Part shown: one piece after another, positions 2,694-61,069 of the stretch
How the letters are laid out: every line of letters begins with the position of its first letter
Numbering within the stretch: position 1 is the stretch's first letter
NCBI GenBank assembly: GCA_964568455.1
Contig: CAZMPJ010000008.1
Coordinates: 1,143 to 65,142 of the forward strand
Length of the DNA stretch: 64,000 bases
DNA from: an uncultured bacterium
GTDB lineage: Bacteria > Margulisbacteria > WOR-1 > O2-12-FULL-45-9
Reading direction: 5' to 3'
The notes under the pieces: model-generated
What the model was told of the DNA's origin: nothing
Database searches by the model: none
What the model saw: only the letters and a program-made list of their open reading frames with translations
Position numbers and translations under genes: made by a program

Positions 2694-2941
2694 AGGAACT
2701 AGTCGAATACATTGTAAAAGCACTTGTTGATCAGCCAGATAAAATTAGTGTTAAAGAAACCGCCGGAGATACAATCACCATTCTTGAAGTTCGTACTGCC
2801 CCAGAAGATGCCGGAAAAGTAATTGGCAGAGAAGGCCGCATTGTTAATTCTATCCGAGCAATTACTAAGGCTGCAGCTGCGAAACAAAGCAAAAAAGTAA
2901 CAGTGGAAATTATTACCGCTGACAAAGAACCAAGAAACTAA
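2690..2941 (+). CDS. KH-domain RNA-binding protein (YlqC family)
   Basis: Contains VIGREGRIVNSIR (a GxxG KH motif). It has an ATGA overlap with rpsP and conserved rpsP-KH synteny. Confidence 0.85.
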   Translation: MKELVEYIVKALVDQPDKISVKETAGDTITILEVRTAPEDAGKVIGREGRIVNSIRAITKAAAAKQSKKVTVEIITADKEPRN

Positions 2942-2957
2942 AAAAAAGGAGAAAACC

Positions 2958-9625: not shown

Positions 9626-9655
9626 CTGAAATTTTTTGCTTAACTTATCGATAAT
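9626..9655 (+). promoter_or_regulatory. Orphan-regulon promoter-like motif, copy P2
   Basis: Reads CTGAAA-ttttttgcttaacttatc(18)-GATAAT, ending 8 nt before the ATG at 9664, with no SD. Confidence 0.45.
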
Positions 9656-17725: not shown

Positions 17726-17931
17726 TTTAAAAACTTACCGCTGTTAAGGTTGGCTATCTTATTTAAATCTTCTACTAGCACGTAATTTTTGGCATCAGAA
17801 TAATTTGGTGCGGCAGTAATTGGGAAAATGGTGTAGAGCGTAACTTTGCGCATTTTAGTACGCACTAATTTTTCTAAGTAATTCTTTAGAGTCGCTTTTT
17901 CTAATTTTTTTAGGGTCTCTTGGGTATTCAT
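17722..17931 (-). CDS. Small orphan protein (69 aa)
   Basis: The ORF is preceded by motif copy P3 and a GAGGGGA SD-like leader. I recognise no family. Confidence 0.45.
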   Translation of the reverse strand: MNTQETLKKLEKATLKNYLEKLVRTKMRKVTLYTIFPITAAPNYSDAKNYVLVEDLNKIANLNSGKFLN

Positions 17932-17951: not shown

Positions 17952-17981
17952 TATATCGACATATTTGGGGTGAAATTTCAG
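17952..17981 (-). promoter_or_regulatory. Orphan-regulon promoter-like motif, copy P3
   Basis: On the minus strand it reads CTGAAA-tttcaccccaaatatgtc(18)-GATATA. A 20-nt leader (tatatagaggggagagtatc) then precedes the ATG at 17931. Confidence 0.45.
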
Positions 17982-19970: not shown

Positions 19971-20000
19971 TTTATCGGTATATTTGGTGGATAATTTCAG
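19971..20000 (-). promoter_or_regulatory. Orphan-regulon promoter-like motif, copy P4
   Basis: On the minus strand it reads CTGAAA-ttatccaccaaatatacc(18)-GATAAA, ending 5 nt before the ATG at 19965. Confidence 0.45.
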
Positions 20001-27536: not shown

Positions 27537-27566
27537 TATATCGTAATATTTAGTAGTTAATTTCAC
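27537..27566 (-). promoter_or_regulatory. Orphan-regulon promoter-like motif, copy P6
   Basis: On the minus strand it reads aaataaaGTGAAA-ttaactactaaatattac(18)-GATATA, ending 7 nt before the ATG at 27529. Confidence 0.45.
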
Positions 27567-32696: not shown

Positions 32697-34793
32697 ATGA
32701 ATCCAGAAGTATTACAAAAGCCGCAACAGGATGCCACTGATCTATCATTATTTGTAAGGACCTCGGGCGAAGATATCGAAGGATTTAACCGGGAAAAAAT
32801 AGTAGCCGCATTAATCCGGGAAACCGAGATTGATGAAACTGTTGCCAATATTATTGGCGTAGAGGTTGAAGAACAAGTTAAGCAATTGAAACTTAAAACC
32901 ATTACTGCTCCACTAATTCGAGAATTAGTTGACGTAAAACTTTTAGAGCATGGCCTGGAAGATGCTAGACGAAAGCATACTCGGCTTGGTTCTCCTCTAT
33001 ATGATGTAAAGGAAATTATTCTAAATCAAAATAAAGAGAATGCTAATGTGCCTCACGGGCCAGAAGCTACTAACCTAACTTTGGCCGAAGGGATTAAAAA
33101 AGAATTTGCTTTGCTGCATGTATTTACTCAAGATATTTCAGACGCGCATATGAGAGGCGATATTCACTTACATGATTTAGGTTTTATTGATCGCCCTTAT
33201 TGCAGTGGTCAATCAGTTGAATATGTAAAGAAATTTGGTCTTGACCTGCCCAATGCGCTGTCTATTGCTAAACCAGCCAAACACGCGGAAGTATTATTAG
33301 CTCAAATGGTAAAATTCTCTGCTGCGCTTCAAGGGGTGTTTGCCGGGGCAATTGGCTGGGATGCGGTCAACTTATTTTTTGCTCCTTTTTTAGAAGGGCT
33401 TTCTGATGAAGAAGTTTACCAAATTGCCCAAATGATGATTTATGAATACAGCCAACAAGCAGTGGCCAGAGGCGGCCAAGCTATTTTCTCAGACATCAAT
33501 CTTTACTGGGAAGTTCCAAAGCATTTTGAAAATGTGCCAGCTATGGGGCCAGGAGGAAAATATACTGGTAAAACCTATGCTGATTACAGCAAAGATGCTC
33601 AGCGCTTTGTCTGGGCGTTGTTTGATGTTTATATGAAAGGGGATGGAGCAGGCCGTCCATTCTTTTTTCCCAAACCTTTGGTGCACATGACTGAAAAATT
33701 CTTTAAAACTCCTGGCCACGAAGAGTTTCTCATGCATATCTCAAAGGTTGCCACGGAAATGGGTAATACTTATTTTGTTTTTGACCGGGGAGAAACTGCC
33801 AAAATTTCTGAGTGCTGCCGCTTGTCCTTTAAATTGGATGACTCAGATCTTAACGATGCAAACGAACCTTGGAGAATGCGTTATTCTGCTTTGCAAAACG
33901 TTACTATTAACCTGCCGCGTGTTGCCTATAAGGCAGAAGGGTCAGATGAAAAATTATTTAAACTATTGAGTGAACATTTAGAGCTCTGCGCGCAAGCCCA
34001 TCTGCAAAAGAAGAAGTTTATTGAAGAGATATTAGCTAAGGGACCCAATGGACCGCTTTCTATGCTATCTATGAAAAGAGACGGCAACTCTTATCTTAGA
34101 ATGTGGCGGGTAAGTTACTTAGTCGGTATTTTAGGCTTAAACGAAGTTGTCCAAGCCCATATCGGCAAAGAATTGCATCAAGGAAAAGATGCGCTGAAAC
34201 TAGGCTTGAAAATTATTTCGTTTATGAAGCTCAAATGCGAAGAGCTTTCAAAAAAGCACGGGGTGCATTTCGTCTTAGAACAAACTCCGGCAGAATCAAC
34301 TGCTTATCGTTTTGCCAAGCTTGATTTAGAACATTTTCCAGAACAAGCTGCTAAAGTAGTAAAAGGACATGATCTAACCGGAGAAATCTATTATACCAAT
34401 TCAACCTATTTTAATGTTTCAGAAAAAATGAATGCGATTGATAAAGTAAGACAAGAAGGACTTTTTCATCCTTTGATTGATGCTGGCGCCTTAACCCATG
34501 TGTGGCTGGGCGAATCAAAACCAGACCCAGCTTCGATTGCTAATTTTGTAATCAAGACCTTTAAACACACAGATAATGCCCAAATTGCATTCTCGCCGGA
34601 ATTTACCTCATGTAATGATTGCGGCAAAATTACTCGGGGATTGCAAGAAAAATGTCAGCATTGTTCTTCAGAAAACATTGAAGGCATCACCCGAATTACC
34701 GGATATTTTTCTAAGGTCCCAGGCTGGAACAAAGGTAAGATTGGAGAGCTAAGAGACCGCCACCGCAGCAAAGAGGATTTTAGTAATGGTTAA
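32697..34793 (+). CDS. nrdD: Anaerobic (class III) ribonucleoside-triphosphate reductase, copy 1
   Basis: Has an N-terminal ATP-cone, an ISECCRLSF thiyl-Cys region, a C-terminal CNDCG...CQHCSS Zn site and the glycyl-radical motif TRITGYFS. Confidence 0.92.
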   Translation: MNPEVLQKPQQDATDLSLFVRTSGEDIEGFNREKIVAALIRETEIDETVANIIGVEVEEQVKQLKLKTITAPLIRELVDVKLLEHGLEDARRKHTRLGSPLYDVKEIILNQNKENANVPHGPEATNLTLAEGIKKEFALLHVFTQDISDAHMRGDIHLHDLGFIDRPYCSGQSVEYVKKFGLDLPNALSIAKPAKHAEVLLAQMVKFSAALQGVFAGAIGWDAVNLFFAPFLEGLSDEEVYQIAQMMIYEYSQQAVARGGQAIFSDINLYWEVPKHFENVPAMGPGGKYTGKTYADYSKDAQRFVWALFDVYMKGDGAGRPFFFPKPLVHMTEKFFKTPGHEEFLMHISKVATEMGNTYFVFDRGETAKISECCRLSFKLDDSDLNDANEPWRMRYSALQNVTINLPRVAYKAEGSDEKLFKLLSEHLELCAQAHLQKKKFIEEILAKGPNGPLSMLSMKRDGNSYLRMWRVSYLVGILGLNEVVQAHIGKELHQGKDALKLGLKIISFMKLKCEELSKKHGVHFVLEQTPAESTAYRFAKLDLEHFPEQAAKVVKGHDLTGEIYYTNSTYFNVSEKMNAIDKVRQEGLFHPLIDAGALTHVWLGESKPDPASIANFVIKTFKHTDNAQIAFSPEFTSCNDCGKITRGLQEKCQHCSSENIEGITRITGYFSKVPGWNKGKIGELRDRHRSKEDFSNG

Positions 34794-36888
34794 TGAAACA
34801 TTATTAAAAGATAAAATTAGCCAATTAACCGTTGAAGAAGAGTCAACTGATCTTTCAGTTTTTGTCCGCACTTCGACCGATGATATTGTGGCTTGGAGCA
34901 GGGATAAGATCATATCTGCCTTGATCAAAGAAACTGGTTTAAACCATGAAATTGCCTCTATCATTGCGATTGAAGTGGAAAAACAAATTAAAGCCATGTC
35001 AATTGAAACGATTACCGCTCCACTGGTCCGAGAGCTGGTAGACGTAAAACTTTTAGAATATGGCTTAGAAGATGCGCGGCGCAAGCATACCCGACTAGGG
35101 GTGCCGGTTTATGACGTAAAAAAGATTATTTTCCATAAAAACAAAGAAAATGCCAATTCCCCACACTCTCCTGAAGCTACCAACTTAACTTTAGCGGAAA
35201 ACATTAAAAAAGAATTCGCCTTACTCGATGTTTTTTCGCTGCCAGTGGCAGACGCACACATGCGCGGAGAAATCCATTTGCATGACTTAGGCTTTGTTGA
35301 TCGACCTTACTGCAGCGGACAATCAATTGAATACCTTAAAAAATTTGGTCTTGATTTGCCGGATTCAAAAGGAACAGCTAAGCCAGCCCAGGATGTAGAA
35401 GAGCTGATTTCTCATATCGTTAAATTTTCCACGGCCTTGCATGGCCATTTTGCCGGAGCGATTGGTTGGGACGCGGTTAATCTATTTATTGCTCCTTATC
35501 TGGAAGGTTATGGCTATGGTCACATTAAAAGGTTTGCCCGCCACTTAATTGAAGAATTTGCCAGTGTTGCGGTTAGCCGCGGCGGCCAAGGCTTGTTTTC
35601 AGACTTAAATATCTATTGGGAAGTTCCAAAACACTTTGAAAGTGTGCCTGCCATTGGTCGTGGTGGCATGTATACTGGTAAAGTTTACGCGGATTATTTA
35701 AAAGAAGCCCAGACTTTTGCTACCGCCATGTTTGAAGTTTATAAAGAAGGGGATGGCGCAGGCCGTCCGTTCTTTTTTCCAAAACCATTAGTACACATGA
35801 CCGAAAAATTCTTTAATACTCCTGGCCACGAAGGATTTTTAAATTTAATCTCTGATGTTGCCGCAGAAATGGGCAATACTTATTTTGTTTTTGACCGGGG
35901 AGAAACTGCTAAGATTTCAGAGTGTTGCAGGCTTTCTTTTAAATTAGATTATTCTGATTTGCAAGACGCTAAAGAGCCTTGGAGGATGCGCTATTCTGCC
36001 ATCCAAAATGTAACCGTTAATTTGCCGCGCATGGCTTATTTAGCTGAAAAAGATGACCAAAAACTTTTTAAGGCAATTGAAAAAGCGCTAGAAAAAGCAA
36101 TTTTGGCTCATCGCGAAAAAAGAAAGTTTATAGAAGCACTTTTGGCCGAAGGAAACGAAGGGCCTCTGTCTCTTTTGGCAACCAATCGGGACGGTGAAAG
36201 TTATCTTAGACTGCGCCGGGTAACCCATTTAGTGGGAATTTTAGGATTAAACGAACTAGTGCAATATCATATCGGAAAAGAGTTGCACGAAGACTCTCAA
36301 GCGCTGCGTTTCGGTTTAAAAGTGATTTCATTTATGAAACTAAAGTGCGAAGAGCTTTCTGAAAAACATGATTTACATTTTGTTTTAGAGCAAACCCCGG
36401 CTGAATCTACTGCTTACCGTTTTGCGAAATTGGATATGGAACATTTTACAGAGCAGGCCAGCAAAGTGGTTAAAGGAAACCGGGATGGCGGTGAGCTTTA
36501 TTATACTAACTCAACCTATTTTAATGTTTCAGAAAAAATGAATGCGATTGATAGAGTAAGGCAAGAAGGGCTTTTTCATCCTTTGATTGATGCGGGCGCC
36601 TTAACCCATGTGTGGATGGGAGAGTCAAAGCCTAATGCCGAATCGATTGCTAACTTTGTAATTAAGACTTTTAAGAACACGGAGAATGTCCAGATTGCTT
36701 TTTCCCCGGAATTTACCGCTTGCTATGATTGCGGAAAAACCGCTCGAGGCCTTAAAGAAAGATGTCCTAGCTGCACGTCAGAGAATATTGAGGGCATTAC
36801 CCGAATTACCGGGTATTTTTCTAAAGTCCCAGGTTGGAACAAAGGTAAAATTGCCGAATTAAGAGATCGCCATCGAGTAAAAATTTAA
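34786..36888 (+). CDS. nrdD: Anaerobic (class III) ribonucleoside-triphosphate reductase, copy 2 (tandem paralogue)
   Basis: It is collinear with copy 1 over its full length and keeps ISECCRLSF, CYDCG...CPSCTS and TRITGYFS. It overlaps copy 1 by 8 nt. Confidence 0.92.
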   Translation: MVNETLLKDKISQLTVEEESTDLSVFVRTSTDDIVAWSRDKIISALIKETGLNHEIASIIAIEVEKQIKAMSIETITAPLVRELVDVKLLEYGLEDARRKHTRLGVPVYDVKKIIFHKNKENANSPHSPEATNLTLAENIKKEFALLDVFSLPVADAHMRGEIHLHDLGFVDRPYCSGQSIEYLKKFGLDLPDSKGTAKPAQDVEELISHIVKFSTALHGHFAGAIGWDAVNLFIAPYLEGYGYGHIKRFARHLIEEFASVAVSRGGQGLFSDLNIYWEVPKHFESVPAIGRGGMYTGKVYADYLKEAQTFATAMFEVYKEGDGAGRPFFFPKPLVHMTEKFFNTPGHEGFLNLISDVAAEMGNTYFVFDRGETAKISECCRLSFKLDYSDLQDAKEPWRMRYSAIQNVTVNLPRMAYLAEKDDQKLFKAIEKALEKAILAHREKRKFIEALLAEGNEGPLSLLATNRDGESYLRLRRVTHLVGILGLNELVQYHIGKELHEDSQALRFGLKVISFMKLKCEELSEKHDLHFVLEQTPAESTAYRFAKLDMEHFTEQASKVVKGNRDGGELYYTNSTYFNVSEKMNAIDRVRQEGLFHPLIDAGALTHVWMGESKPNAESIANFVIKTFKNTENVQIAFSPEFTACYDCGKTARGLKERCPSCTSENIEGITRITGYFSKVPGWNKGKIAELRDRHRVKI

Positions 36889-41117: not shown

Positions 41118-41624
41118 ATGAGTTACGGACAAATAGGTGGGGTAGGTAATACATCAGGATTAGTGTGGCAATTTTTGAAGTCAGATGGCGGCACCTCAAA
41201 AGAAATTAAATATACTACTCTTACATATACTCATCCTATGGGGACATTAACAATTGCTTTCCCCAAGGGAACACATGTTCCGCAAGAGATAAGAGACATG
41301 GTCTGGAACTGTTCCGACGAGGCAAAAAGAGGAATCCCACAGAATAGGCCTTGGCGGGTTATGATTAGAATATCTGTTCAAAAAGATAAATCAGGAGAAA
41401 TTGTTGAATGGCAGATATTTTCTTCTTGCGCTTATACCTCTTCTGATGGCCAAGAAAAAAGAATTACGGGTAAGGATATGATACAAAAGTGGACTGGTGA
41501 GGCAATTGGCTCGGCGACTTCAAAGAAATACATAGCAAGGCTTCAAGAGGGTGTTAAAGGTGGAGTGTTATGTCACATCGTCCTCCGTGAGTCATTGCGT
41601 TGGCCTGATTTCAAGAAAAAGTGA
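41118..41624 (+). CDS. Orphan protein (168 aa)
   Basis: An ORF with a good SD. I recognise no family. Its last codons and stop (aag aaa aag TGA) are part of motif copy P8. Confidence 0.6.
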   Translation: MSYGQIGGVGNTSGLVWQFLKSDGGTSKEIKYTTLTYTHPMGTLTIAFPKGTHVPQEIRDMVWNCSDEAKRGIPQNRPWRVMIRISVQKDKSGEIVEWQIFSSCAYTSSDGQEKRITGKDMIQKWTGEAIGSATSKKYIARLQEGVKGGVLCHIVLRESLRWPDFKKK

Positions 41625-41650
41625 AATTTTCACTAAAAAGTGTCGATATA
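41621..41650 (+). promoter_or_regulatory. Orphan-regulon promoter-like motif, copy P8
   Basis: Reads aagaaaaaGTGAAA-ttttcactaaaaagtgtc(18)-GATATA. The surrounding ~45 bp are a near-duplicate of copy P7. Confidence 0.45.
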
Positions 41651-42570: not shown

Positions 42571-43702
42571 TAGCCTCTTTAATCCGTTTTTCCGGAATAG
42601 TGATAGCAAAGCGGACATAACCTTCACCTGATGGGCCATAGCCATTACCGGGTACAACTAAAATCCCGCATTTTTCTAGCAAAGTTTCAGTAAAAGAAGA
42701 AGAGGTTTTTCCTTTTGGCACTGGTACCCAGACATAAAAAGTAGCTTTGGGTTTGGGAAAATTCCAACCTAAAGAAACTAGGCCATCATACAAAGCATTG
42801 CGACGTTTTTCAAAAACTTTATTATGCTCATTAACACATTTTTGTGATTTAGTTAAAGCTTCAATGCCGGCAAACTGCACCGCTTTAAAAGCACCACTGT
42901 CTAGATTGGATTTAATAGTGGCCAAGGCTCCAACTGCTTCGGCGCTGCCCACGGCCATACCGATTCTCCAGCCAGTCATGTTATAAGTTTTTGAGAGCGA
43001 ATGAAATTCAATACAGACTTCTTTGGCGCCAGGAACTTCTAGCACGCTATGGGGGCTGTATCCATCGTAGCCCATTTCAGAGTAGGCCAGGTCTGAAACT
43101 AAAAGTAAATCATGCTCTTGGCAAAAATCAACGCATTTTTTAAAGAAAGCAAGATCAGCTACTGCACCGGTTGGATTATTAGGGTAATTAATGAACAAGA
43201 TTTTTGCTTCTTCCACCACATCTTTGGAAATATTTTCTAAATCAGGCAAAAAATTGTTTTCTGCGGTTAAAGGCAGAAAGTAAGGTTCTCCGCCAGCCAG
43301 CATGGTGCCGATTTTATAAACTGGATAGGCTGGATCTGGGACTAAAGCAATGTCTCCTTCATCAATAAAAGCTAAAAATAGATGGCTAATGCCTTCTTTA
43401 GAACCAATTAAAGTGCAAACTTCTTTGGTTGGATCAAGATCAACATTAAACCTTTTTTTGTACCAATCTGCTACTGCTTTTCTAAAGTCTGGCTCACCTT
43501 TTGAGGTAGGATATTGTCCTGATTCTGGTTTTTCTAGCACATCATGCATTTTTTTGAAAATATGTTTTGGCGTAGGTAAATCTGGATCGCCAATACCAAA
43601 ATCAATTACATCTATACCTTTTTTAACCAGTTCTTCTTTTTTCTCTTCAATTTTAACAAAGAGATAGGGTGGAATTTTATCTAAGCGTTTAGATTTTCTC
43701 AT
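42536..43702 (-). CDS. dapL: LL-diaminopimelate aminotransferase-type class I aminotransferase
   Basis: Contains RLDKIPPYLFVKI, NYPNNPTG and SLSKTYNMTGWRIG (PLP Lys). It is coupled by ATGA overlap to dapF upstream. Confidence 0.8.
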   Translation of the reverse strand: MRKSKRLDKIPPYLFVKIEEKKEELVKKGIDVIDFGIGDPDLPTPKHIFKKMHDVLEKPESGQYPTSKGEPDFRKAVADWYKKRFNVDLDPTKEVCTLIGSKEGISHLFLAFIDEGDIALVPDPAYPVYKIGTMLAGGEPYFLPLTAENNFLPDLENISKDVVEEAKILFINYPNNPTGAVADLAFFKKCVDFCQEHDLLLVSDLAYSEMGYDGYSPHSVLEVPGAKEVCIEFHSLSKTYNMTGWRIGMAVGSAEAVGALATIKSNLDSGAFKAVQFAGIEALTKSQKCVNEHNKVFEKRRNALYDGLVSLGWNFPKPKATFYVWVPVPKGKTSSSFTETLLEKCGILVVPGNGYGPSGEGYVRFAITIPEKRIKEAISRMKEQGIRF

Positions 43703-44499
43703 GCTGTGTAATCTCCTTCAAAAACTTTTATGGCAGGCCCGCGCATTAAGACATGACTGTCGTCAGTTAACTCAATATCCAGGTTTCCGCCGGGTAAATG
43801 AACCACTGCGCGTTTGCCGACTTTACCGGCTTTATTAGCTGCTACCACACTAGCGCAAGCTCCAGTGCCGCAAGCTAAGGTTTCTCCTGCTCCTCTTTCC
43901 CAAACTTCTACTTCGATTTCTTTATCATTTAATATTTGCACAAATTCAACGTTGGTGCGATTAGGAAAATTAGGATGATTTTCAATTTCCGGCCCAATTT
44001 CAACTACATTAACTTTTGTTAGATCATCCACAAAAATAACCGCATGCGGATTCCCCATTGAGATATTATTAATAGTATATTCCTTGTTGTTAATTGTTAA
44101 TTGTTCATTGTTAATTATTTTTGGTATCCCCATGTCGACTTCGATACCAATTACTTGTTTTTCTGGTCCAAGAATCACGGCCGGAAGCATTACGCCGGCT
44201 AAAGTTTCAACTGAAAGTACTTCTTCTTTTAATTGATCTGTTTCATAAACATGTTTAGCAAAGCATCTGATGCCATTGCCGCACATTTCTGGTTCTGATC
44301 CATCAGGATTAAGAATTTGCATGCGATAATGCGCTTTTTTTGATGGCCAAACAATCAACAACCCATCTGCGCCAATGCCAAAATGGCGATCGCAAACATC
44401 TTGAGCCAATTTCTTTAAGTCAACCTGCTCAAGATTATCTTTGCGGCTGTCAATCAGCACAAAATCATTGCCTAAACCGTGATATTTGTAAAATTTCAT
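43699..44499 (-). CDS. dapF: Diaminopimelate epimerase
   Basis: Contains MKFYKYHGLGNDFVLID, MCGNGIRC and ACGTGACA (the two catalytic Cys). The start is at 44499, not the 44721 of the raw ORF. Confidence 0.92.
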   Translation of the reverse strand: MKFYKYHGLGNDFVLIDSRKDNLEQVDLKKLAQDVCDRHFGIGADGLLIVWPSKKAHYRMQILNPDGSEPEMCGNGIRCFAKHVYETDQLKEEVLSVETLAGVMLPAVILGPEKQVIGIEVDMGIPKIINNEQLTINNKEYTINNISMGNPHAVIFVDDLTKVNVVEIGPEIENHPNFPNRTNVEFVQILNDKEIEVEVWERGAGETLACGTGACASVVAANKAGKVGKRAVVHLPGGNLDIELTDDSHVLMRGPAIKVFEGDYTA

Positions 44500-44524
44500 G
44501 ATACTTAAGATTTTAGCATAATTA

Positions 44525-44554
44525 GTGAAATTTTTCAGGAGAATGGACGATATT
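44525..44554 (+). promoter_or_regulatory. Orphan-regulon promoter-like motif, copy P9
   Basis: Reads GTGAAA-tttttcaggagaatggac(18)-GATATT, ending 5 nt before the ATG at 44560. Confidence 0.45.
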
Positions 44555-44559
44555 TGAGT

Positions 44560-47262
44560 ATGGGTATGACTAATCGAAAGATAATGGACATAGCTCCTTT
44601 GCGTAAGATCTTTCCTGCTCGGGCACATGATCTTATAAATCAAGTACAAGGATTGCATACAAACCTGGATTTGCCCGGCCTTTGCAGGGTAGTTAGTGAC
44701 TTGCAAAAAATAAGACATCATCCAGCGGTTTTAATTCCTTTATATGAAATTATCTGTTCTGTGGCAAATCAAACAAGGCAATATACGCACGCAACAGAAT
44801 TTGCCTTACGCATAATGAGCTTAGGCAAAGGCGATGTGCTTACATCTGCCACTGCGCTTTTAGAGCGAGCTAGTTTGCAGTATGGGGAATTAGGTGGTGA
44901 CGATCAATTAGAAATAACAAGACATTTTCATAAATATTTAAGGGGTGCGGGAAATTTTGCTAAATTGCAGGATCTTTCGGTAGACCTGCAGGCTAGTTGG
45001 GCAATTATATTTACTCTCATTTTTCCTAAACAATACTTGTCAGAGCAAATAATTCTAATTGAAAATACTTTTGTTGGAAGTGATAGCAGAAAAAGAAAAG
45101 CAGGAGCCGCAATAACCTATATCAGCTTAGCACGCAGAATTTTTTCTATTGAAAGAAAACCTATAAAAATAGCAAAACTCCGCTCAATGGCTGAATATGT
45201 TTTTGCAAATGAACCAGAAGCCGTAATTGATCCAGAGAGATGTTCTGAAGAATATTTTGATGATCTTATAGCAAGCTTGGCCCGCTTTGATTTATTTGAT
45301 TTGGTTGACCAGGCTATGCAAATACGTGACCCCGAACCTAATTTAGCCATACATTTATATGTTGGTTTATTAAAAATACTACAACAGGATCTAAAAGTTG
45401 CTTATGTGGAAGATTTAAAGCTTGAAGGTCAAATTCGGTCAGCCAGCATGTCTGATGTATTAAGGGCGGAATTTAGTTTGTTATCTACAAGGATAGCAAG
45501 AGATTATATGGAAAGCATAAAACGCCCCCACGCAGAGTTTGAGCTGGGTTTTGAGCCGTCGAATTATTTTGAAAGAGCTTTTTTGGCTCCACTATCTGAT
45601 TGCCCTCAATTAGTGGCTGGAATAGTTGCTTTACGTCGAAGTGTATTAGTAGAATTTGGTAAAGCAGTATCAAGGCCAAACTATTTTGTTACTGAGGCAA
45701 GCGCAAAAAACGTTTTGGGGGTTAAGCTTTTACGGGCAAATATAGTGCAGCTGCCTGGCTCAACCAAGCTTGAAGTGTATGTTTTTAATGAACAAGAAAC
45801 TGCTTGTGCAAAAGCCTATTTTATTTTAAAGCTTAATGTGAAAGGTGAGGTATGTGGAATTGAGCCTCAACTCTATCTTGAAGGGGTAAAGCCCAGAGAC
45901 CGCCAAAACATAATACTTTTTTGGGAATATATAACCTTGGCGTTGTTAGCAGGAAGCCGCTTATATGAAGATACTGATGGTGAGGTGGAAGAAAGCGATC
46001 TTGATCTTCTAGCAGGCGAAATTTATGAGTTTTCAAAAAAAATTGCCTTAAAAGAAAACTTTGCTGCTTTTCAAACTATTGAAGAGGGTTTTGTTGAAGA
46101 AGAAAAATATCGCGAAAAAGAAGTTGATCTTAATAACTGCTATCGCTTGGCCAGAATGATTTTTGAATCTTTTATAGAACAAGTAACTCCAGCAACTTAT
46201 GCGCTATCTGAGCAAGACTTTTTAGCTGATATTTTTACTTCAATTACTTTTATAGACCCCAAAGATTTAGAAAAGGTTTCTGATGATGTAACTATAAGAC
46301 AAATTTTAGCTGATCATGAAAATGTTGAAGCAGCCAAGTTCCCTTTTATAGTTGTTTTAAAAGATAAGGCCGGGTCAGATATTATAATTCAAGTTAAAAG
46401 TGCTGATGAAATAAATGTATTAGGCTCAAGAGGCGAAAGGATTAATGCCTTATTGCAAAAATATATTCTGGAGCTCGTTTTTGGTGCTAGCGCTAAACGG
46501 TTGGCAAGAACAAAAACTGGAGCTGGTCAAGGAGCGATAATTTTTGATGAAACAGAAGAGGCTGCTGGGCCAGAGCAGGTCTTAAGAAATGTTTATCAAA
46601 GAGAATTTTTAAAATTAGTTGATCAGAAAGGTATTTTTGCTTTTCCTTGGCTTTATACTGAATCTGCCGGCAGAGATGATGTTTTATTTTATCCATTTGA
46701 AAACCAGGATGTTGCAGCCAAAAGAAACTTATTTGAAGAAAGAGATGGTAGAGAAATATTTGTTCAGATAGAGCCTTTTGGTTCGATCAGAGTATTACCA
46801 GTTTCAAGAAGAAAAGGAAAAGGCGGCGGTTGGATTTTTAGGCCAAAAGACAGAACAACTCTTCGCGAACGACAAAAGGAATTATTAGCAGATAGCAGCC
46901 CTTTTCCAGCATTTTATCGGCTTTATATTAAAACTACTTTCTCGAATGAAGAGGGCAATGAATCTGTTCAGATTATTACTCCTTATGCTTTGCGGGAAGA
47001 TGAAGATGAAATATGGTCAGATGATGTTTTGGGTAGGTTGGAAGCTGAAATCGCACAAGGGGAACATAAGGCTGACCCAATAAAATTATTAAAAGGAACT
47101 TCTGGTGAGCGCAGAAGGAAGCTTGAAGCCAGAATTCAATCCGGCGAGCTCACAATAGTAGAACAGACAACAGAGATTTTTGAAATAAACACTACTTATC
47201 ATCGGCCTAAAATGGTTAGTTTAGCGGAGTTGTTGGAGCAAGGTTGTGAGTTGGAGAGATAA
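44560..47262 (+). CDS. Large orphan protein (~900 aa), paralogue of 57489-60068
   Basis: A long ORF, collinear with the 859-aa protein. Examples: FDLFDLVDQAMQIRDPEP vs FDQLDYADQAMVIRQPET, and C-terminal INTTYHRPKMVSLAELLEQGCELE vs LNTTFKRPTMERLSDLLEQGYTLE. Confidence 0.7.
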   Translation: MGMTNRKIMDIAPLRKIFPARAHDLINQVQGLHTNLDLPGLCRVVSDLQKIRHHPAVLIPLYEIICSVANQTRQYTHATEFALRIMSLGKGDVLTSATALLERASLQYGELGGDDQLEITRHFHKYLRGAGNFAKLQDLSVDLQASWAIIFTLIFPKQYLSEQIILIENTFVGSDSRKRKAGAAITYISLARRIFSIERKPIKIAKLRSMAEYVFANEPEAVIDPERCSEEYFDDLIASLARFDLFDLVDQAMQIRDPEPNLAIHLYVGLLKILQQDLKVAYVEDLKLEGQIRSASMSDVLRAEFSLLSTRIARDYMESIKRPHAEFELGFEPSNYFERAFLAPLSDCPQLVAGIVALRRSVLVEFGKAVSRPNYFVTEASAKNVLGVKLLRANIVQLPGSTKLEVYVFNEQETACAKAYFILKLNVKGEVCGIEPQLYLEGVKPRDRQNIILFWEYITLALLAGSRLYEDTDGEVEESDLDLLAGEIYEFSKKIALKENFAAFQTIEEGFVEEEKYREKEVDLNNCYRLARMIFESFIEQVTPATYALSEQDFLADIFTSITFIDPKDLEKVSDDVTIRQILADHENVEAAKFPFIVVLKDKAGSDIIIQVKSADEINVLGSRGERINALLQKYILELVFGASAKRLARTKTGAGQGAIIFDETEEAAGPEQVLRNVYQREFLKLVDQKGIFAFPWLYTESAGRDDVLFYPFENQDVAAKRNLFEERDGREIFVQIEPFGSIRVLPVSRRKGKGGGWIFRPKDRTTLRERQKELLADSSPFPAFYRLYIKTTFSNEEGNESVQIITPYALREDEDEIWSDDVLGRLEAEIAQGEHKADPIKLLKGTSGERRRKLEARIQSGELTIVEQTTEIFEINTTYHRPKMVSLAELLEQGCELER

Positions 47263-47265
47263 GGC

Positions 47266-48183
47266 ATGCCCCTAATTAAACCTTTTGCGCAACTGCCACT
47301 GATGAAGATCAGAAATGTTAAAGTTGATCTTCCTTTAAGTCGAAGAGTTAGTGTTGTCCGCTCAACTGGCATCCCAGCTAAAACTGATCCAGCTCATTTT
47401 GTGCAAACCATGCTGGACTGGGAAGCAAGAATGGGTACAACACATGCGGTGTTAGCAGGCATGATGCTTATGACTGGCACAGCTGAAGTTGATGATGTAA
47501 TTGATGGATTTGAAACCTTTCACCGCATTTATGACAAAGTAGCTCCTTTTATGCAAAACTGCACGCTGACGGAACTAGAACGATTTACAACTTTCTTAAA
47601 AGGTAAATTAAATTTTGCTCCTTTTTATCCTGACTTTTACCTTGGTTTAAAAAGTTTTGAAGCTAATTTAGATGGAGCGGATAAGATAGTGGGGGATTGT
47701 GTTGTTTGCGCGGCAATATATGATTTGCTTTATTCCCAGGCTGGAGGGATAGCTGGGGCAGGCTTTAGAGTTATTGATTTGCATACAAGAGCTTATTTGC
47801 CAGATTTAAATTATAATTTTGAAATTGGCAGCGACGAGCAACCACAAGAGTATTTACGCTTTAAACCAGTTCAATCTACTACACCTTATCTTTTTAGTAG
47901 TATGTTTTCTTTTTTAACCGTAGCTTCTTTGTTGTCAATTATTATGTTTGTTAGAGTGGAGACAGGAGGAAAAGCAAATTACAAGTTACTTTCTGCAGAT
48001 AAGCTTGCTTTTCTCATGAATTGGCTTGAGTGCGCTGAAGCCATAAACCCATATCATATTTGCATTTATTTTAACAAAGAAAATGTTTATGAAGCGACGG
48101 GGAAAAAAGGCGAAGCGGCTTTGCAGGGAACAGTTGTTGATGAGTTGATGGGCTTTGTTGGTCAGCAGATTATAGTGGCTTAG
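47266..48183 (+). CDS. Orphan protein (305 aa) with one predicted TM segment
   Basis: It starts 3 nt after the 900-aa gene's stop. It has a hydrophobic stretch, LFSSMFSFLTVASLLSIIMFV. I recognise no family. Confidence 0.6.
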   Translation: MPLIKPFAQLPLMKIRNVKVDLPLSRRVSVVRSTGIPAKTDPAHFVQTMLDWEARMGTTHAVLAGMMLMTGTAEVDDVIDGFETFHRIYDKVAPFMQNCTLTELERFTTFLKGKLNFAPFYPDFYLGLKSFEANLDGADKIVGDCVVCAAIYDLLYSQAGGIAGAGFRVIDLHTRAYLPDLNYNFEIGSDEQPQEYLRFKPVQSTTPYLFSSMFSFLTVASLLSIIMFVRVETGGKANYKLLSADKLAFLMNWLECAEAINPYHICIYFNKENVYEATGKKGEAALQGTVVDELMGFVGQQIIVA

Positions 48184-48536
48184 CCAAAATAACTTGCACT
48201 AGTCTTTTCAGATTCAAAAACCGTTACTTTTGCCAGCTCTTTAATGTCTTTTTTAAGTTTTTCGTAAATTAGTTTAGCAATAATTTCACAAGAAGGGTTT
48301 TTGTCTTTGAATTCCGGCAGACCATTTAAATTTTGATGATCAAATTTGTCTATAACCTTTTTTAGTTTTGCTTTTACTTCTTTAAAATCAACCATGATCC
48401 CGATCTTATTCAGTTTATCTCCCTTTAAATAAACCTGGACCTTCCAGGTGTGACCATGCAGGTTTTCGCAAGGGCCGCTATAACCCCGCAGCGCATGAGC
48501 TGAGCTGAAAGTATCTTCTATCATAAGTTCAAACAT
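48180..48536 (-). CDS. queD: 6-carboxy-5,6,7,8-tetrahydropterin synthase
   Basis: FSSAHALRGYSGPCENLHGHTWKV is the typical PTPS/QueD motif; length is 118 aa. Confidence 0.9.
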   Translation of the reverse strand: MFELMIEDTFSSAHALRGYSGPCENLHGHTWKVQVYLKGDKLNKIGIMVDFKEVKAKLKKVIDKFDHQNLNGLPEFKDKNPSCEIIAKLIYEKLKKDIKELAKVTVFESEKTSASYFG

Positions 48537-49413: not shown

Positions 49414-50479
49414 TCAGAAATAGCTTTTTACCCCCCAGGCAATAGCATTAGCTGTTTTATTTTGAAAAGCAGAAGACCTAGCTAGCTTTTCTTCCTCACT
49501 GTTACTGATAAACAAAGGTTCAATCAAGATTGCCGGCATTTTAGCATGATGAATAGTATAAAACATTGCTCGTCTAAGTCCCCGATCCTTTCTTTTTAAT
49601 CCTCTTACCAGGCTGCGGTGGATGGTTAAACCTAGTCTTCTACTTTTTCTATTATAGTAATAGGTTTCCGTGCCGCGGACCCTTTGGTTATAAAATACAT
49701 TATAGTGGATTGAGATAAATATCAGCCTGGACCTTGTTGGCAAACTTAACAATGTCTCTTAAACTGTTAGTTCTATCATCATTCCTAGTTAAATAAACTG
49801 TTGCCCCTGCAGCTTGCAAGTAATTTGCTACTTTGCGGGCTAAGGGCAGGGTTAAATTCTTTTCCGGGATTTTATGCAGAGAAAAACCGCCCGGATCCCT
49901 TCCGCCATGACCAGGGTCAATCACGATGGTTTTGCCACGCAAAGACTTGTCTTTACTTTTATAGTTAGGCAAATATTTATAAGGCTTAAACGCATCGGTT
50001 TTTTGCTTAAGCATTTTTGTTTCCCAGGCGGCTTGCAGTTCTTTGCTAGGATTTTCTCGGTCATAGAGTTCAACTGAAGTTTTTCCTCGGCCAAAGATGT
50101 TAACTACTTCATAAACCGAATCCTTTTTTAAGCTAATGATGATTTTTGCGGTCTTGCCTGATTGTTTAGCGGCAATACCCTTAATTCGTTTATGACTCCA
50201 GAGTTTTGGTTTTAACCCTGGAGTTATTTTAGTGTTGGGAAATTCAATAATAAGCTGATCTTCAAGCAAGAGCCCTTGTCCCTCAAGGTTGCCAGAACCA
50301 TTAATATTGATGTAGTCAATGTTTAGGTTGCGAACTGCTTCTATTTTAGTTATTTCTGATAAATTAGATGCGGCAGCAGCAGAAATCCAAAATCCAAATA
50401 TCAAAATCCAAATAAATCTAGAAAAAACCAAATCGAAAAAATAATTTATTGATTTGGATTTAAACGATTTATTTGTCAT
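49414..50479 (-). pseudogene. N-acetylmuramoyl-L-alanine amidase (AMIN plus Amidase_3) interrupted by a frameshift
   Basis: Frame A (50479-49700) reads ...IVIDPGHGGRDPG...ANKVQADIYLNPL*. Frame B (49752-49414) continues ...IFISIHYN...GTETYYY...PAILIEPLFISN. The conserved AD(L)FISIH motif is split at about 49715-49723. Confidence 0.7.
50383..50417. repeat. Tandem heptamers (AAATCCA)n inside the amidase 5' coding region
   Basis: The units are AAATCCA-AAATCCA-AATATCA-AAATCCA-AATAAAT. On the coding strand they encode the IWILIFGFWI hydrophobic stretch. Confidence 0.65.
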
Positions 50480-55120: not shown

Positions 55121-55150
55121 TCTATCGTTGTTTGTTTTAATAAATTTCAC
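55121..55150 (-). promoter_or_regulatory. Orphan-regulon promoter-like motif, copy P10
   Basis: On the minus strand it reads GTGAAA-tttattaaaacaaacaac(18)-GATAGA, ending 6 nt before the ATG at 55114. Confidence 0.45.
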
Positions 55151-57453: not shown

Positions 57454-57483
57454 CTGAAATTTTCCAAATTTTATCCCGATATT
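57454..57483 (+). promoter_or_regulatory. Orphan-regulon promoter-like motif, copy P11
   Basis: Reads CTGAAA-ttttccaaattttatccc(18)-GATATT, ending 5 nt before the ATG at 57489. Confidence 0.45.
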
Positions 57484-57488
57484 AAGGC

Positions 57489-60068
57489 ATGAAAGTAATG
57501 CCTATTTTTATTGCAAATGCCCGGGCAAATTTTGCTAATGCCTGTGGCAGAAGCGATTTTTCTACTGCCTTGAAGAATATTAGGTTGATAGAGCGAGGCG
57601 CAAGACATCTTCAGCCAAATGAAGTTGCCAGACATTTTAGGGATTTTACTAAACTTTGTTTGGATCATGGTAATAAAGGAAGGTATGCTTTCCAGTTTGC
57701 TGTTAAAGCTTATCGTCGGGCAGCTCTGCCAGAAATAAGGGTTGAGGCAGTAGAAATGTTGCTGGCTTTGGCTGATAGCTGTGCTCAACATAAAGAGATT
57801 GCTGAGGAACTTGGGCCACAATTTGATCATTTAATTGGCAGCTCTCTTAAACAAACGATTCACACTATGACAAGTGAAGAAGCGGAAGAGTGGTTTAGAG
57901 TTGTTGATACCTTAGACCGTAACACTTATCATGTTGAGCAAAAATTACTGATTGAGGTTTTTTTGCCAACCATGGCAGCAGGCCAACCAAGAGCTGAAAT
58001 TGCTTCTCGCCATCTTGAAACGTCAATGTGGGCAGAGCGTTTTTATAATGTAGAGGCTGACCACGAAAAAATAGCTGCTAGTGCAAAAATATTTGTTGAA
58101 GAAGGGCAAGCTGTTATTGAGGCTTATTCAAGTGAAGCTTTTTTTATGATGATCGCTACGCTTAATTATTTTGATCAACTGGATTATGCAGACCAAGCCA
58201 TGGTTATACGACAACCAGAAACAACGGATCCAGTGCAATACTTGGTTGAATTGGCCAGAGGCAGACGCGATGACCTTGAAGCGGCTTTCCAATCATTAAA
58301 AGGCAGTAGTAGTAGATACGAAACACTTTCACAGCAAATAATCAGAGAAATCAGTGCTGTCCAGATCAAAATTGCTGGCGAATATCTTGATCAACGCTTA
58401 AAAGATCAACCAGCTATGTCCCAAACACCGTCTTGGCGCGCTCGTTTGTTATATCAACCGCTAAATTCAGATCAAGCTCTAAGCGAAAAACTTTTTGATT
58501 ATTTAAGAGCGCTGCTTAAACTGCATGCCGAGCCAGTACGTAAGCTAGCGCCTTTTTGGGTTTATTTAGAATTGCTGATCAAGGAGAAGCTGACTGCTGC
58601 TTATATTGTTTATTTTCCTTCTAGACATGAATTTGTTGTTTATTTTGATGATAAGGGTGACAACCGCTGGATAAAGGTGGTCTTTCCAACAGATGGAAAA
58701 GGCAAAGAAGAAGTATTTGTAGCAACCCCTGGAAATGAAGCGCAAGTTGGCACCATAATGCAAGCGGCCAAGCTTTTGGCTAGTTCAGAAGCTGAGATAT
58801 CTGCGCAGGTTAAGGGTAAATTAACTACTTTGGTAGAAAAAGTAAGCAAGGAGTTAGTCTGTGCCGCGCGTAGATTGTTTGAGAAGGAAAACAGTAATCT
58901 TTATAAGACTTTTGCTATTGTTTTAGCTGATGACCAGCGACTGCAAGACCGAGTGGTTGAAATGCACAATCGCTTGCATCTGGCGCGAAACATTTTTACA
59001 GCCTACCTTAAACAAATAGAGGAAGAAACTTATGAGTTACAATCAGATGATCTTTTAGCTCAATTAATCAAATCAATTGCTTTTTATCCTTTTGAAAAAT
59101 TGGCTCAAATGAAAAACCAAGGCCAGCTTGGCGGATTGCTGCCACAAAAAGATGGGAAATACCCTTTTGTTGTAGGCCTTAAGCCGGAAGCTAATGAAGC
59201 AAAAGAAATATTATTAGTTGTTCATTCTCCTCAAAAAATTGTAGTTCCTGGTCATGGACAATTAAGTGGCGTGGAAGCTGAATTTGTTTATGATTTAATT
59301 TATGAGGCAGCTGTAAAATTATCAATTAAAACAGCTGCGGAAAGTTTACAGCAAACGGGGTACCTGTTTAAAAGAGATATCGAGGCAGCAAAAGGGTTAG
59401 CCAAACTAAAAAGAATTAATGCTCATTATTTTAAAACTGAAATGGCTAAAAGGGGGCTTTTGGCTTTTGATTGGTTTACTTATGAGCCAATAGGAGATGA
59501 CGGCCTTTATCATCCTATCCCAGATCAGGGCGAAGAAGTTAAAAGAGCTTTGTTTGCTGAAGGGAACTTGGATGAAATTTATGCTAAAACAGAAATAGAA
59601 GGATTAGCCATGCTTCTGCCTGTGCGAAAGAAAAAAGTAGAAGGGAAAATCATCTTAGCTCCTTGGGAGCGTCAGCTTTTGCGTGAAGAGCAACAAAGGA
59701 TACTTGGGGACACTCGTGTTTTGCCTGTTTATTATGGTCTTTATATTTTGACTTATTTTTCTGATGGTAAGGCCCATGCTTTTAGGTATTTGATTAAGGC
59801 AACTGAGGCAGAAATTTTAAAAGATGATTTAATTGCTGATGTTGAGAAACGGTTGGCAGACGGATTTTTCCATGATCCAGAAATTTTCTTAAAAGGGACT
59901 TCTAGACAAGATCGCGCTTTGCTTGAAGCAGAATTAGCTAGTGAGCAATTAACTATTTTGGAGCAGGAAGTACAGGTTTATAGGCTAAACACAACATTTA
60001 AGCGTCCTACAATGGAGAGGTTAAGTGATCTTTTGGAGCAGGGCTATACTTTAGAGCCACAAGGATAA
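57489..60068 (+). CDS. Large orphan protein (859 aa), paralogue of 44560-47262
   Basis: A long ORF, collinear with the ~900-aa protein (see that entry). I recognise no family. Confidence 0.7.
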   Translation: MKVMPIFIANARANFANACGRSDFSTALKNIRLIERGARHLQPNEVARHFRDFTKLCLDHGNKGRYAFQFAVKAYRRAALPEIRVEAVEMLLALADSCAQHKEIAEELGPQFDHLIGSSLKQTIHTMTSEEAEEWFRVVDTLDRNTYHVEQKLLIEVFLPTMAAGQPRAEIASRHLETSMWAERFYNVEADHEKIAASAKIFVEEGQAVIEAYSSEAFFMMIATLNYFDQLDYADQAMVIRQPETTDPVQYLVELARGRRDDLEAAFQSLKGSSSRYETLSQQIIREISAVQIKIAGEYLDQRLKDQPAMSQTPSWRARLLYQPLNSDQALSEKLFDYLRALLKLHAEPVRKLAPFWVYLELLIKEKLTAAYIVYFPSRHEFVVYFDDKGDNRWIKVVFPTDGKGKEEVFVATPGNEAQVGTIMQAAKLLASSEAEISAQVKGKLTTLVEKVSKELVCAARRLFEKENSNLYKTFAIVLADDQRLQDRVVEMHNRLHLARNIFTAYLKQIEEETYELQSDDLLAQLIKSIAFYPFEKLAQMKNQGQLGGLLPQKDGKYPFVVGLKPEANEAKEILLVVHSPQKIVVPGHGQLSGVEAEFVYDLIYEAAVKLSIKTAAESLQQTGYLFKRDIEAAKGLAKLKRINAHYFKTEMAKRGLLAFDWFTYEPIGDDGLYHPIPDQGEEVKRALFAEGNLDEIYAKTEIEGLAMLLPVRKKKVEGKIILAPWERQLLREEQQRILGDTRVLPVYYGLYILTYFSDGKAHAFRYLIKATEAEILKDDLIADVEKRLADGFFHDPEIFLKGTSRQDRALLEAELASEQLTILEQEVQVYRLNTTFKRPTMERLSDLLEQGYTLEPQG

Positions 60069-60073
60069 TAATT

Positions 60074-61069
60074 ATGAGTGTTCACTTTGTAGAAACACCA
60101 AAAGCTGGAGTGGTTAAACCACCCAAGCGTAAAACAGTTAAGCAAAAAAAGTGGGAAATCAAGCAAGTATTGGATTTCGCTGATTTTTTGATCTTGCGTT
60201 GTTATTTTGACAAAGCGGAAAAACTTTTAAAAAAGATTTTAAAAAAATATCCCCAATCTGCTTCACTTTGGTCAAAATTAGGCTTGGTTTATTTAAAGCA
60301 ATATAAAGGTGCAGAGGCTAAAACAGCTTTTGAAAAAGCCAAGTATTATAACCCCAATCAGGTAGAAGCACTTTATCATTTGGGAAATATGAATGAAAGC
60401 CTAATACAAGTTGACCAAGCCTGCCGATTGACCCAAGACCCTTATTATCTTGGCTTATGCAATTGTTATTTTAAAGAATTACCTACTGCGTTTGAGGCTT
60501 TTGTTAAAGGCTATGAAATAAACTTAGGAACCGATCATCCAGGCTTAATGCAATTTGCACTTGAAACAGTACAACTCTATTTAACCACAGCTAATGTGGC
60601 CAGCGAGTTAAATTTTAAAGAGGCTTTTGCTGGAGTTATAGAGCAGATGAATAAAATGATTAGTTTTGCCAATAAGCATTTTAGAGGAAAGAGTAAAATA
60701 AAATTGATTGCCAAACATACCTCTTCTAAAAAGGCCTTTGCTAGGTTACTTTTAGCTGCTAAATCAATTTGTGAAGAAGCCATACGAGATAACTGTCGCA
60801 ACGAATCTGCCCATTATAATTTGGGCATGATTTATTTTGTGCAAGAAAAATATGAGCAAGCAAGAAAATGTTTTGAGCGAACAGTGGAGCGGAATCCTAG
60901 ACATGCTTTTGCCCATTTGCAGTTAGGCTTTTTAAGTCTTATCGAAGAAAAAACAGAAGAGGCAGAAAAGCATTTTAGACAAGCCCATAAATTGTTTAAA
61001 GAAGGTGGGATGGAGAAAATGTTTCTTGAAAAATACGAGATTTTAAAGGATGGGATTAAAGAAGAATAG
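60074..61069 (+). CDS. TPR-repeat protein
   Basis: It has several 34-aa TPR-like units (e.g. WSKLGLVYLKQYKGAEAKTAFEKAKYYNPNQVEALYHLG and HYNLGMIYFVQEKYEQARKCFERTVERNPRHAFAHLQLG). It starts 5 nt after the 859-aa gene. Confidence 0.65.
   Translation: MSVHFVETPKAGVVKPPKRKTVKQKKWEIKQVLDFADFLILRCYFDKAEKLLKKILKKYPQSASLWSKLGLVYLKQYKGAEAKTAFEKAKYYNPNQVEALYHLGNMNESLIQVDQACRLTQDPYYLGLCNCYFKELPTAFEAFVKGYEINLGTDHPGLMQFALETVQLYLTTANVASELNFKEAFAGVIEQMNKMISFANKHFRGKSKIKLIAKHTSSKKAFARLLLAAKSICEEAIRDNCRNESAHYNLGMIYFVQEKYEQARKCFERTVERNPRHAFAHLQLGFLSLIEEKTEEAEKHFRQAHKLFKEGGMEKMFLEKYEILKDGIKEE

Follow-up and report, generated by a model that had tools for sequence, protein, structure and literature searches.

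The window analysed here, a stretch of 64,000 nucleotides (nt) of contig CAZMPJ010000008.1 from an uncultured bacterium, carries two large genes, here called A and B, each closely followed by a smaller one, A2 and B2 respectively (Table 1). A and B stem from an ancient duplication, have been inherited vertically and belong to a small family restricted to Saganbacteria and Margulisbacteria. According to structure prediction, their products are made of a solenoid of about 360 residues resembling tetratricopeptide repeats (TPR), followed by an alpha/beta region of about 530 residues for which no relatives could be detected. Taken together, the propositions that these are real genes, that they are paralogues, that their family is lineage-restricted and that a TPR-like arm is joined to a region without relatives can be held with high confidence. 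What the proteins do is much less certain, and several possibilities are weighed below.

The window belongs to a Saganbacteria (WOR-1) genome, its proA product being 74% identical to that of a Candidatus Saganbacteria metagenome-assembled genome (MAG), with next best matches at 58%. Its G+C content is about 39% and a tmRNA is present. Saganbacteria, which the NCBI taxonomy places under the Cyanobacteriota/Melainabacteria group, and Margulisbacteria are uncultured sister lineages of the Cyanobacteria. To our knowledge, almost nothing is known of the cell biology of either. Related loci and proteins are referred to below by the handles L001, P0005 and so on.

Two paralogues of a small, lineage-restricted family

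The open reading frames (ORFs) given in the initial annotation of this DNA were all recovered, namely A, A2 beginning 3 nt past the stop codon of A, B, and a 331-aa gene beginning 5 nt past the stop codon of B; the peptide segments quoted there were all found in the translations. The same annotation had described the products of A and B as collinear and as the outcome of an old duplication that was kept. Both statements are supported, since BLASTP aligns the two proteins at 27% identity over 782 aa (E=5e-65). A hidden Markov model (HMM) of the family recognises exactly two members among the proteins of the window and gives B a score of 903 bits. Orthologues of A are 57%, 56% and 38% identical to it, and those of B are 63% (P0005) and 46.5% identical (P0009, by tblastn on L040).

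The family is small. When 1.84 billion representative proteins were searched exhaustively with an HMMER profile, 40 members emerged at E<=1e-3, most of them full length (840-920 aa), and a word-indexed search of 5.8 billion proteins returned two or three relatives each for A, B and A2. The members bearing a name are two hypothetical proteins of Candidatus Margulisbacteria and one protein in a WOR-1 MAG, and no functional name could be drawn from any family member or library. A, B and A2 have no match in Pfam, NCBIfam, PADLOC or PHROGs, and the same is true of distant members except for a NOV_C domain in P0026. Thus, the earlier description of these genes as orphans stands. In phage and plasmid collections, tblastn found no match to A, and a pattern-based scan of IMG/VR found no relative of it. 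Pattern-based locus scans of this kind are insensitive: with one alignment (A1) nothing was found in GTDB genomes or JGI metagenomes, the JGI result probably reflecting the method itself, since the JGI data are known to contain members, and with another (A6) the scan of GTDB returned one WOR-1 MAG. Further paralogues were also sought among the large genes of unknown function lying near the relatives (879 aa in L041, 630 and 647 aa in L005, 945 and 938 aa in L044), and all were rejected by the family HMM.

Table 1. Positions of the genes, predicted protein regions and promoter-type elements in the window.
Feature	Position	Strand	Remarks
Gene A	44560..47262	+	900 aa; frame 44554/44560, 900-902 aa; probable start ATG 44560; Margulisbacteria/Saganbacteria-restricted family
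Promoter-type element of A	44526..44553	+	TGAAAT-N14-GACGATAT; ATG 6 nt past CGATAT
Predicted TPR-like solenoid, A residues ~10-371	44587..45672	+	AlphaFold2 secondary structure, Foldseek, profile match; fastest-evolving part
Predicted C-terminal region, A residues 372-900	45673..47259	+	four alpha/beta subdomains, ~372-540, 541-650, 671-814 and 815-900
Gene A2	47266..48183	+	305 aa; no known family; start 3 nt past stop of A; stop overlaps convergent queD by 4 nt
Gene B	57489..60068	+	859 aa; paralogue of A
Promoter-type element of B	57455..57482	+	TGAAAT-N14-CCCGATAT; ATG 6 nt past CGATAT
Gene B2	60074..61069	+	331 aa; canonical TPR protein (Pfam TPR_2, 5e-20); start 5 nt past stop of B
dapF (diaminopimelate epimerase)	43699..44499	-	Pfam DAP_epimerase on identical contig L003; 93% identical to L001; divergent from A
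queD (PTPS family)	48180..48536	-	Pfam PTPS on L003; 92% identical to L001; convergent with A2
TGAAAT-N14-nnCGATA(T/A) site	9627-9654	+
TGAAAT-N14-nnCGATA(T/A) site	17953-17980	-
TGAAAT-N14-nnCGATA(T/A) site	19972-19999	-
TGAAAT-N14-nnCGATA(T/A) site	27538-27565	-
TGAAAT-N14-nnCGATA(T/A) site	41622-41649	+
TGAAAT-N14-nnCGATA(T/A) site	55122-55149	-

A TPR-like arm and a region without relatives

The structure of full-length A was predicted with AlphaFold2 from an alignment of 31 sequences (pLDDT 88.5, pTM 0.71). In the model, residues 12-371 are entirely helical, with paired helices of about 12-20 residues each. When the full model was compared with the PDB using Foldseek, the top matches were all TPR proteins, such as KLC2 and OGT, at weak scores (best E=5e-3). 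Nearly all of the top 50 matches are TPR or related helical-repeat proteins, with probabilities up to 1.0 and TM-scores of about 0.4 when normalised to the target and below 0.2 when normalised to the query. Over its positions 50-100, the family profile also matches proteins designed from the TPR consensus, with E-values down to 2.8e-27 summed over many repeats, and these designs were all that the full-family profile found among PDB sequences. Pfam TPR models gave no match at E<=1 on A or B, and none at E<=0.01 in 31 members.

The C-terminal region, modelled separately (pLDDT 85.2, pTM 0.78), is predicted to fold into four alpha/beta subdomains. Foldseek found nothing significant for it, the best match in the PDB having E=0.34 and the best in BFVD having E=0.012 at a TM-score below 0.15; structural negatives for A cover these two collections. 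The profile of the C-terminal region found no PDB sequence at E<=10. PDB sequence searches with P0046 and with the tail of P0031 returned nothing, that with the A2 family nothing significant, and hhalign comparison of five parts of the large protein revealed no internal repeat. Profile and Foldseek searches, which had been proposed along with the initial annotation, thus assign the front third (~10-371), through weak matches, to a TPR-like solenoid and leave residues ~372-900 in no known family, so that the statement that no known domain is present holds for the second part but not for the first.

The last ~230 residues of A form the most conserved stretch of the protein. The subdomain 671-814 is basic (pI >8.4) in 28 of the 31 members, the other subdomains being mostly acidic. 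Across the same members, 39 positions are conserved in at least 80% of the sequences; they are mostly G, P, L, W, Y, T, Q, D, R or K, and His, Cys, Ser and Glu are absent from them. Conserved polar residues of the C-terminal region include D553, K721, Q772, D778, R852, Q869, T879 and R882. A pattern scan of A for Walker A, HExxH, CxxC and GDS motifs found none. The Walker A pattern [AG]xxxxGK[ST] does not occur in A, and Pfam AAA or NACHT models match none of the 31 members. In this respect the earlier remark that no catalytic motif can be recognised agrees with the data. Hydropathy profiles of six members show no strongly hydrophobic segment (maximal 19-residue Kyte-Doolittle mean 1.54), and no signal peptide was seen by eye in A or B. 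By their composition, the A and B proteins are cytoplasmic.

Two distant members, P0026 and P0031, bear additions at their C-terminus. In P0026, residues 984-1070 constitute a NOV_C domain (PF13020) of the PD-(D/E)xK type, which Pfam detects in one of the 31 members and not in A or B, and which matches the PADLOC models PDC-S36 (1.7e-22) and PD-T4-1. The extension of P0031 shows, by eye only, a nuclease-like D..E.K motif. Such nuclease fusions concern only two of the 40 members.

Fast evolution of A and A2

Rates of evolution were estimated with L001 as the reference for protein identity and for nonsynonymous (dN) and synonymous (dS) divergence. The flanking genes are 84-97% identical at the protein level, with dN of 0.03-0.085 and dN/dS of 0.04-0.13. 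The corresponding values are 57%, 0.31 and 0.24 for A, and 62%, 0.27 and 0.30 for A2. Hence, amino-acid change in A and A2 is 4-10 times faster than in the flanks, and the TPR part of A displays the highest dN (0.41). At the nucleotide level, identity is 83-93% in the flanks; a drop to 54-79% sets in exactly at the start codon of A, and the higher level is regained at queD. Ancient allele replacement was considered as a cause of this island of divergence and rejected, because the dS of A (1.3) lies only moderately above that of the flanks (0.4-1.1) and the dS of A2 (0.89) lies within their range. From these dS values, most of the divergence can be attributed to a higher rate of amino-acid replacement. 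A and A2 are functional genes and not decaying frames; purifying selection is retained, and the constraint on them is weaker or in part diversifying.

The promoter element and the start of A and B

The sequence TGAAATTTTYCA-N10-CGATATT-N5-ATG is found upstream of both A and B with identical spacing, which confirms that, as first reported, a conserved motif lies 5 nt from each ATG. The element of A is kept in the orthologous loci L001, L004 and L034 and that of B in L005, and the ATG keeps its position with respect to the element in five orthologue or paralogue loci. The same element is also found upstream of distant family members (L033, L037, L039). The motif is not confined to the paralogous pair and does not amount to a shared regulatory site for it: 8 of the 9 strict matches in the window stand directly upstream of genes of unrelated function, and 6 of those 8 have their first start codon 6-9 nt past the element. 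At one mismatch or less, 17 sites of this class occur in the window against 5.8 +/- 2.5 in shuffled sequences. At least eight unrelated transcription units are preceded by the element, including those of a 6-phosphogluconolactonase-like gene and of an alpha/beta hydrolase. As judged from this distribution, the element is a putative general promoter of the lineage and not a signal specific to A and B.

A possible parallel is offered by sigma-28 (FliA/SigD) promoters, whose consensus consists of a -35 element TCTAAAG and a -10 element GCCGATAA located at -15..-8 (PMC12784957). The window element, GAAA-N15-nnCGATA(T/A), resembles TAAA-N15-GCCGATAA in having the same two elements at the same 15-nt spacing. 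At the sequence level, to which this comparison is confined, A has GAAA-N15-GACGATAT and B has GAAA-N15-CCCGATAT. Unlike sigma-28 promoters, the window element fronts at least eight unrelated units, as would a general promoter, and does not delineate a motility regulon. A scan for E. coli-type sigma-70 promoters did not call the motif (8/12 by hand count, for a threshold of 9 of 12) and showed no excess of sites.

If the -10 position of sigma-28 promoters is applied, the transcription start would fall at or beside the ATG of A and of B. No Shine-Dalgarno sequence precedes either ATG. Three gene calls among the orthologues use the motif-proximal ATG; the database starts of proteins identical to A and B lie downstream of it, by 24 nt for A (44584) and 9 nt for B. 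Leaderless mRNAs are therefore plausible for A and B, and the recurrence of the element suggests that such mRNAs may be widespread in this Saganbacteria genome. As for the initial description of A as leaderless, the geometry stands, with 6 nt from the -10-like element to the ATG in five loci and a like arrangement at five or six further genes of the window, and the position of the transcript start is deduced from it.

A 69-aa ORF (17722-17931, minus strand) lies between a gene that comparison with L041 indicates to be NAD-kinase-like and proA. Ahead of this ORF stand an exact copy of the promoter element and a Shine-Dalgarno-like sequence, GAGGGGAG, and on these signals it is probably a real small gene.

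The small downstream genes

A small gene does begin within 3-5 nt of the end of each large gene, as had been noted. GGAG occurs 10-13 nt upstream of the start of A2 and AAGGA upstream of B2. Together with the gaps of 3 and 5 nt to the preceding stop codons, these Shine-Dalgarno-like sequences fit a coupled translation of the small genes with the large ones.

The proposal of two paralogous two-gene modules does not survive comparison of the small proteins. A2 and B2 are unrelated (BLASTP E=1.4; hhalign probability 0.4%), B2 being a standard TPR protein and A2 having only three relatives in the word-indexed search. No relationship between the partners and the TPR part emerged when the A2 and B2 families were compared by hhalign with the parts of the large protein. 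The A2 protein had also been described as anchored in the membrane by a single hydrophobic helix. This could not be confirmed: two hydrophobic segments occur in the A2 family, around residues 141-165 and 204-232, with 19-residue Kyte-Doolittle means of 1.3-2.07 across homologues, and the second contains N, Q or S in some of them.

Nor are the small genes kept beside the large ones, as the idea of a module would imply. Only in the window and in L001 does A2 adjoin A; beside the A orthologues of L004 and L034 it is missing, and L039 has a 127-aa ORF in its position. A TPR neighbour of the B2 type is present beside B in the window and in L005, where it is only 31% identical to B2, and is absent in L040-L042; the contig of L043 ends about 240 nt past the gene and is uninformative. 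Members of the A2 family also exist without a large gene, as tandem pairs in L035 (467-2267) and L036 (276-2076) encoding proteins of 306 and 295 aa that are 40% and 31% identical to A2. In L034, a frameshifted copy of A2 (2290-3076) lies 5 kb upstream of the A orthologue, with lytB on one side and a Sua5-like gene on the other.

Chromosomal neighbourhood

The initial annotation placed A between dapF and queD. The Pfam marks DAP_epimerase and PTPS on the identical contig L003 confirm these flanks, and Asp_Glu_race and Aminotran_1_2 are also marked there. A minus-strand ORF overlapping the start of A (43699..44721) was discarded as a mere upstream extension of dapF, whose true start is at 44499.

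Only a handful of genomic contexts were read. A-type genes are flanked by dapF and queD in four loci; in a fifth, the gene is next to queD. In L001, whose flanks are 84-97% identical to those of the window, the A-type gene is followed by A2 and then by an inserted pair resembling a nucleotidyltransferase toxin-antitoxin system. In L004 (flanks 72-87% identical) and L034 (45-82%), the A-type gene is directly followed by queD. In L039, where dapF, queD and murI are 67-84% identical to those of the window, the order is A-type gene, 127-aa ORF and queD, with the upstream gene at the contig end. The interval from rpe to ribD houses the B-type gene of the window, of L005 and of L041/L042, and the gene of L043 follows rpe. 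In a Margulisbacteria genome (L044), a family member is found beside genes for ClpB, LemA and an M48 peptidase. The large genes are thus stably established in the chromosome, and the small genes beside them vary.

Both slots have received other genes. The pair inserted in L001 (5208-5871), which encodes a nucleotidyltransferase and a nucleotidyltransferase substrate-binding protein between the A2 orthologue and queD, is absent in the window; the slot downstream of A therefore accepts insertions. In the slot of B, genes without Pfam matches encode proteins of 359, 630 and 647 aa in L005 (8885-9964 and 13778-17613) and of 497 and 879 aa in L041 (6276-7769 and 12003-14642), and the family HMM finds none of these large genes related to A and B. 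The rpe-ribD interval appears to be a hotspot for lineage-specific genes.

Comparison with known systems

Two kinds of proteins invite comparison. With TPR scaffolds such as the kinesin light chain TPR domain, the OGT superhelix, BtubC and BamD, A shares a right-handed stack of helix pairs, predicted at residues ~10-371. It differs from them in that neither A nor B has a Pfam TPR match at E<=1, the Foldseek matches are weak, and about 60% of A (residues 372-900) has no counterpart in these proteins.

The second comparison is with defence proteins. TPR domains serve as sensors in known defence systems, namely in Avs/STAND NTPases and in the TPR-CHAT protease of type III-E CRISPR. Like these proteins, A combines a long TPR-like array with a second module, its TPR part evolves fast, and distant members of its family are fused to a PD-(D/E)xK/NOV_C nuclease domain. 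TPR-CHAT itself appears at rank 31 in the Foldseek list for A. Unlike Avs/STAND proteins and TPR-CHAT, A and B have no P-loop NTPase, protease or nuclease domain and no PADLOC match, and their genes are syntenic and core-like, not borne on islands.

Possible functions of A and B

The mechanism that we favour, with more reservation than conviction, is that of non-enzymatic cytoplasmic scaffolds or adaptors, with a partner-binding TPR arm, a C-terminus docking on a polyanion and leaderless transcripts. The fast-changing TPR solenoid would bind changeable protein partners. A candidate partner of A could be A2, which is possibly associated with the membrane, and one of B could be the TPR protein B2, each small protein being translated, on this view, from one mRNA with its large neighbour. 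Through its conserved C-terminal region, which includes the basic subdomain 671-814, the large protein would dock on a conserved and probably polyanionic target, for instance a nucleic acid; the NOV_C/PD-(D/E)xK addition of P0026 fits such a nucleic-acid-related target. A and B would each be transcribed from the general sigma-28-like promoter of the lineage, whose closeness to the ATG would yield a leaderless mRNA. A2 and B2 would be translated by coupling or re-initiation, with the help of their Shine-Dalgarno-like sequences.

Several points weigh against this mechanism. Both the binding partner and the ligand are putative. A2 and B2 are not conserved beside the orthologues and, if they are ligands, must be facultative ones. 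A basic charge in a single subdomain speaks only weakly for a polyanionic target, the missing catalytic motif does not exclude a new enzyme, and the lack of structural relatives holds for the PDB and BFVD. Finally, the leaderless start is a matter of sequence geometry, and gene callers begin both A and B downstream, at the distances given above.

A wider proposition concerns the C-terminal region, whose ~530 residues may represent one or more folds not seen before, the family then being a phylum-specific core factor whose place is taken elsewhere by unrelated proteins. This is possible but doubtful. If true, A and B might be organisers associated with nucleic acids or with the envelope, their TPR arm co-evolving fast with changing partners. 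Alternatively, they might be conflict sensors of a new type, fixed in the chromosome and devoid of an NTPase.

The idea that A and B act in conflicts, as anti-phage sensors, deserves attention in its own right, although it is judged unlikely. The TPR solenoid would recognise a protein of the invader, and the C-terminal module or the variable downstream gene would be the effector. Candidate effectors, no more probable than the idea itself, would be the hydrophobic A2, the TPR protein B2 and the nuclease domain fused in distant homologues. The elevated dN of A and A2 (4-10 times that of the flanks) with its sharp boundaries, the particular speed of the TPR part and the turnover of downstream genes between genomes, including the toxin-antitoxin-like pair beside A2 in L001, are what such sensors might be expected to show. 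The PADLOC matches of the NOV_C domain in P0026 and the nuclease-like tail read by eye in P0031 point in the same direction. However, the genes are found in the same slots, among housekeeping genes, in genomes whose flanking proteins are between 96% and ~45% identical to those of the window, and this argues for vertical, core-like inheritance rather than for the behaviour of defence islands. Moreover, dN/dS is well below 1, there is no NTPase or Walker A motif, A, B and A2 match none of the PADLOC families (0 at E<=1), A has no relatives in the phage, plasmid and IMG/VR collections, and nuclease fusions are confined to the two members cited.

It may also be imagined that A and B are lineage-specific cytoplasmic organisers of envelope or peptidoglycan biogenesis, or of division control, linked in function to their neighbours. 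Genes related to the cell wall are indeed near: dapF, an aminotransferase of the diaminopimelate pathway, murI, an amidase and a PknB-PASTA kinase; this wall-rich neighbourhood is kept in L001, L004, L034/L005 and L041. Yet A is divergent from dapF, convergent with queD and provided with its own promoter, as is B. Unrelated genes (queD, the CCA-adding enzyme, rpe, ribD) are present as well, so that adjacency may simply reflect a stable backbone. The fast evolution is unlike that of the neighbours, neither protein shows membrane or periplasmic targeting, and the different location of the family member in L044 further weakens the argument. An envelope role is accordingly rated as quite improbable.

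A slightly poorer case can be made for the C-terminal 530 residues being an enzyme of new fold, for which the TPR solenoid would select the substrate. The region is large, well folded in prediction and conserved, and it contains the conserved polar residues listed above. However, no His, Cys, Ser or Glu is conserved, no nucleotide- or metal-binding motif was found, and no enzyme in the PDB is similar by sequence or fold. Such an activity thus seems improbable. As for the view that A and B are decaying or spurious frames, which the absence of known domains, the very small number of relatives and the fast divergence might have suggested, it is refuted by the intact ~880-aa frames in more than 25 clusters of the family, the dN/dS values of 0.24-0.30, the confident AlphaFold2 models and the conservation of promoter and start position.

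Other features of the window

Elsewhere in the window, two overlapping tandem genes (32697-36888, plus strand) encode NrdD paralogues of anaerobic ribonucleotide reductase (698 and 700 aa), both above the curated cut-off of the TIGR02487 NrdD model. An Amidase_3 (N-acetylmuramoyl-L-alanine amidase) gene at 49414-50479 (minus strand) is broken into the overlapping ORFs 49414-49752 and 49700-50479. Its orthologue in L001 is a single 333-aa gene, 93-97% identical, which indicates a frameshift in the window, due either to pseudogene formation or to an assembly error. Another orphan pair, consecutive genes of 530 and 721 aa without Pfam or NCBIfam match, occupies 23778-27529 (minus strand), and the first of the two has a copy of the TGAAAT-N14-nnCGATA(T/A) element 8 nt from its ATG.

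Conclusions

Orphan families such as that of A and B are numerous in candidate phyla. This one is maintained across the lineage as one or two copies at set places in the chromosome, evolves several times faster than its neighbours and has no detectable sequence or fold relatives over 60% of its length, and it therefore offers a defined target for structural and interaction work. The putative general promoter of the lineage and the leaderless genes that it may control would also affect the annotation of gene starts in these organisms, some of which gene callers now place downstream.

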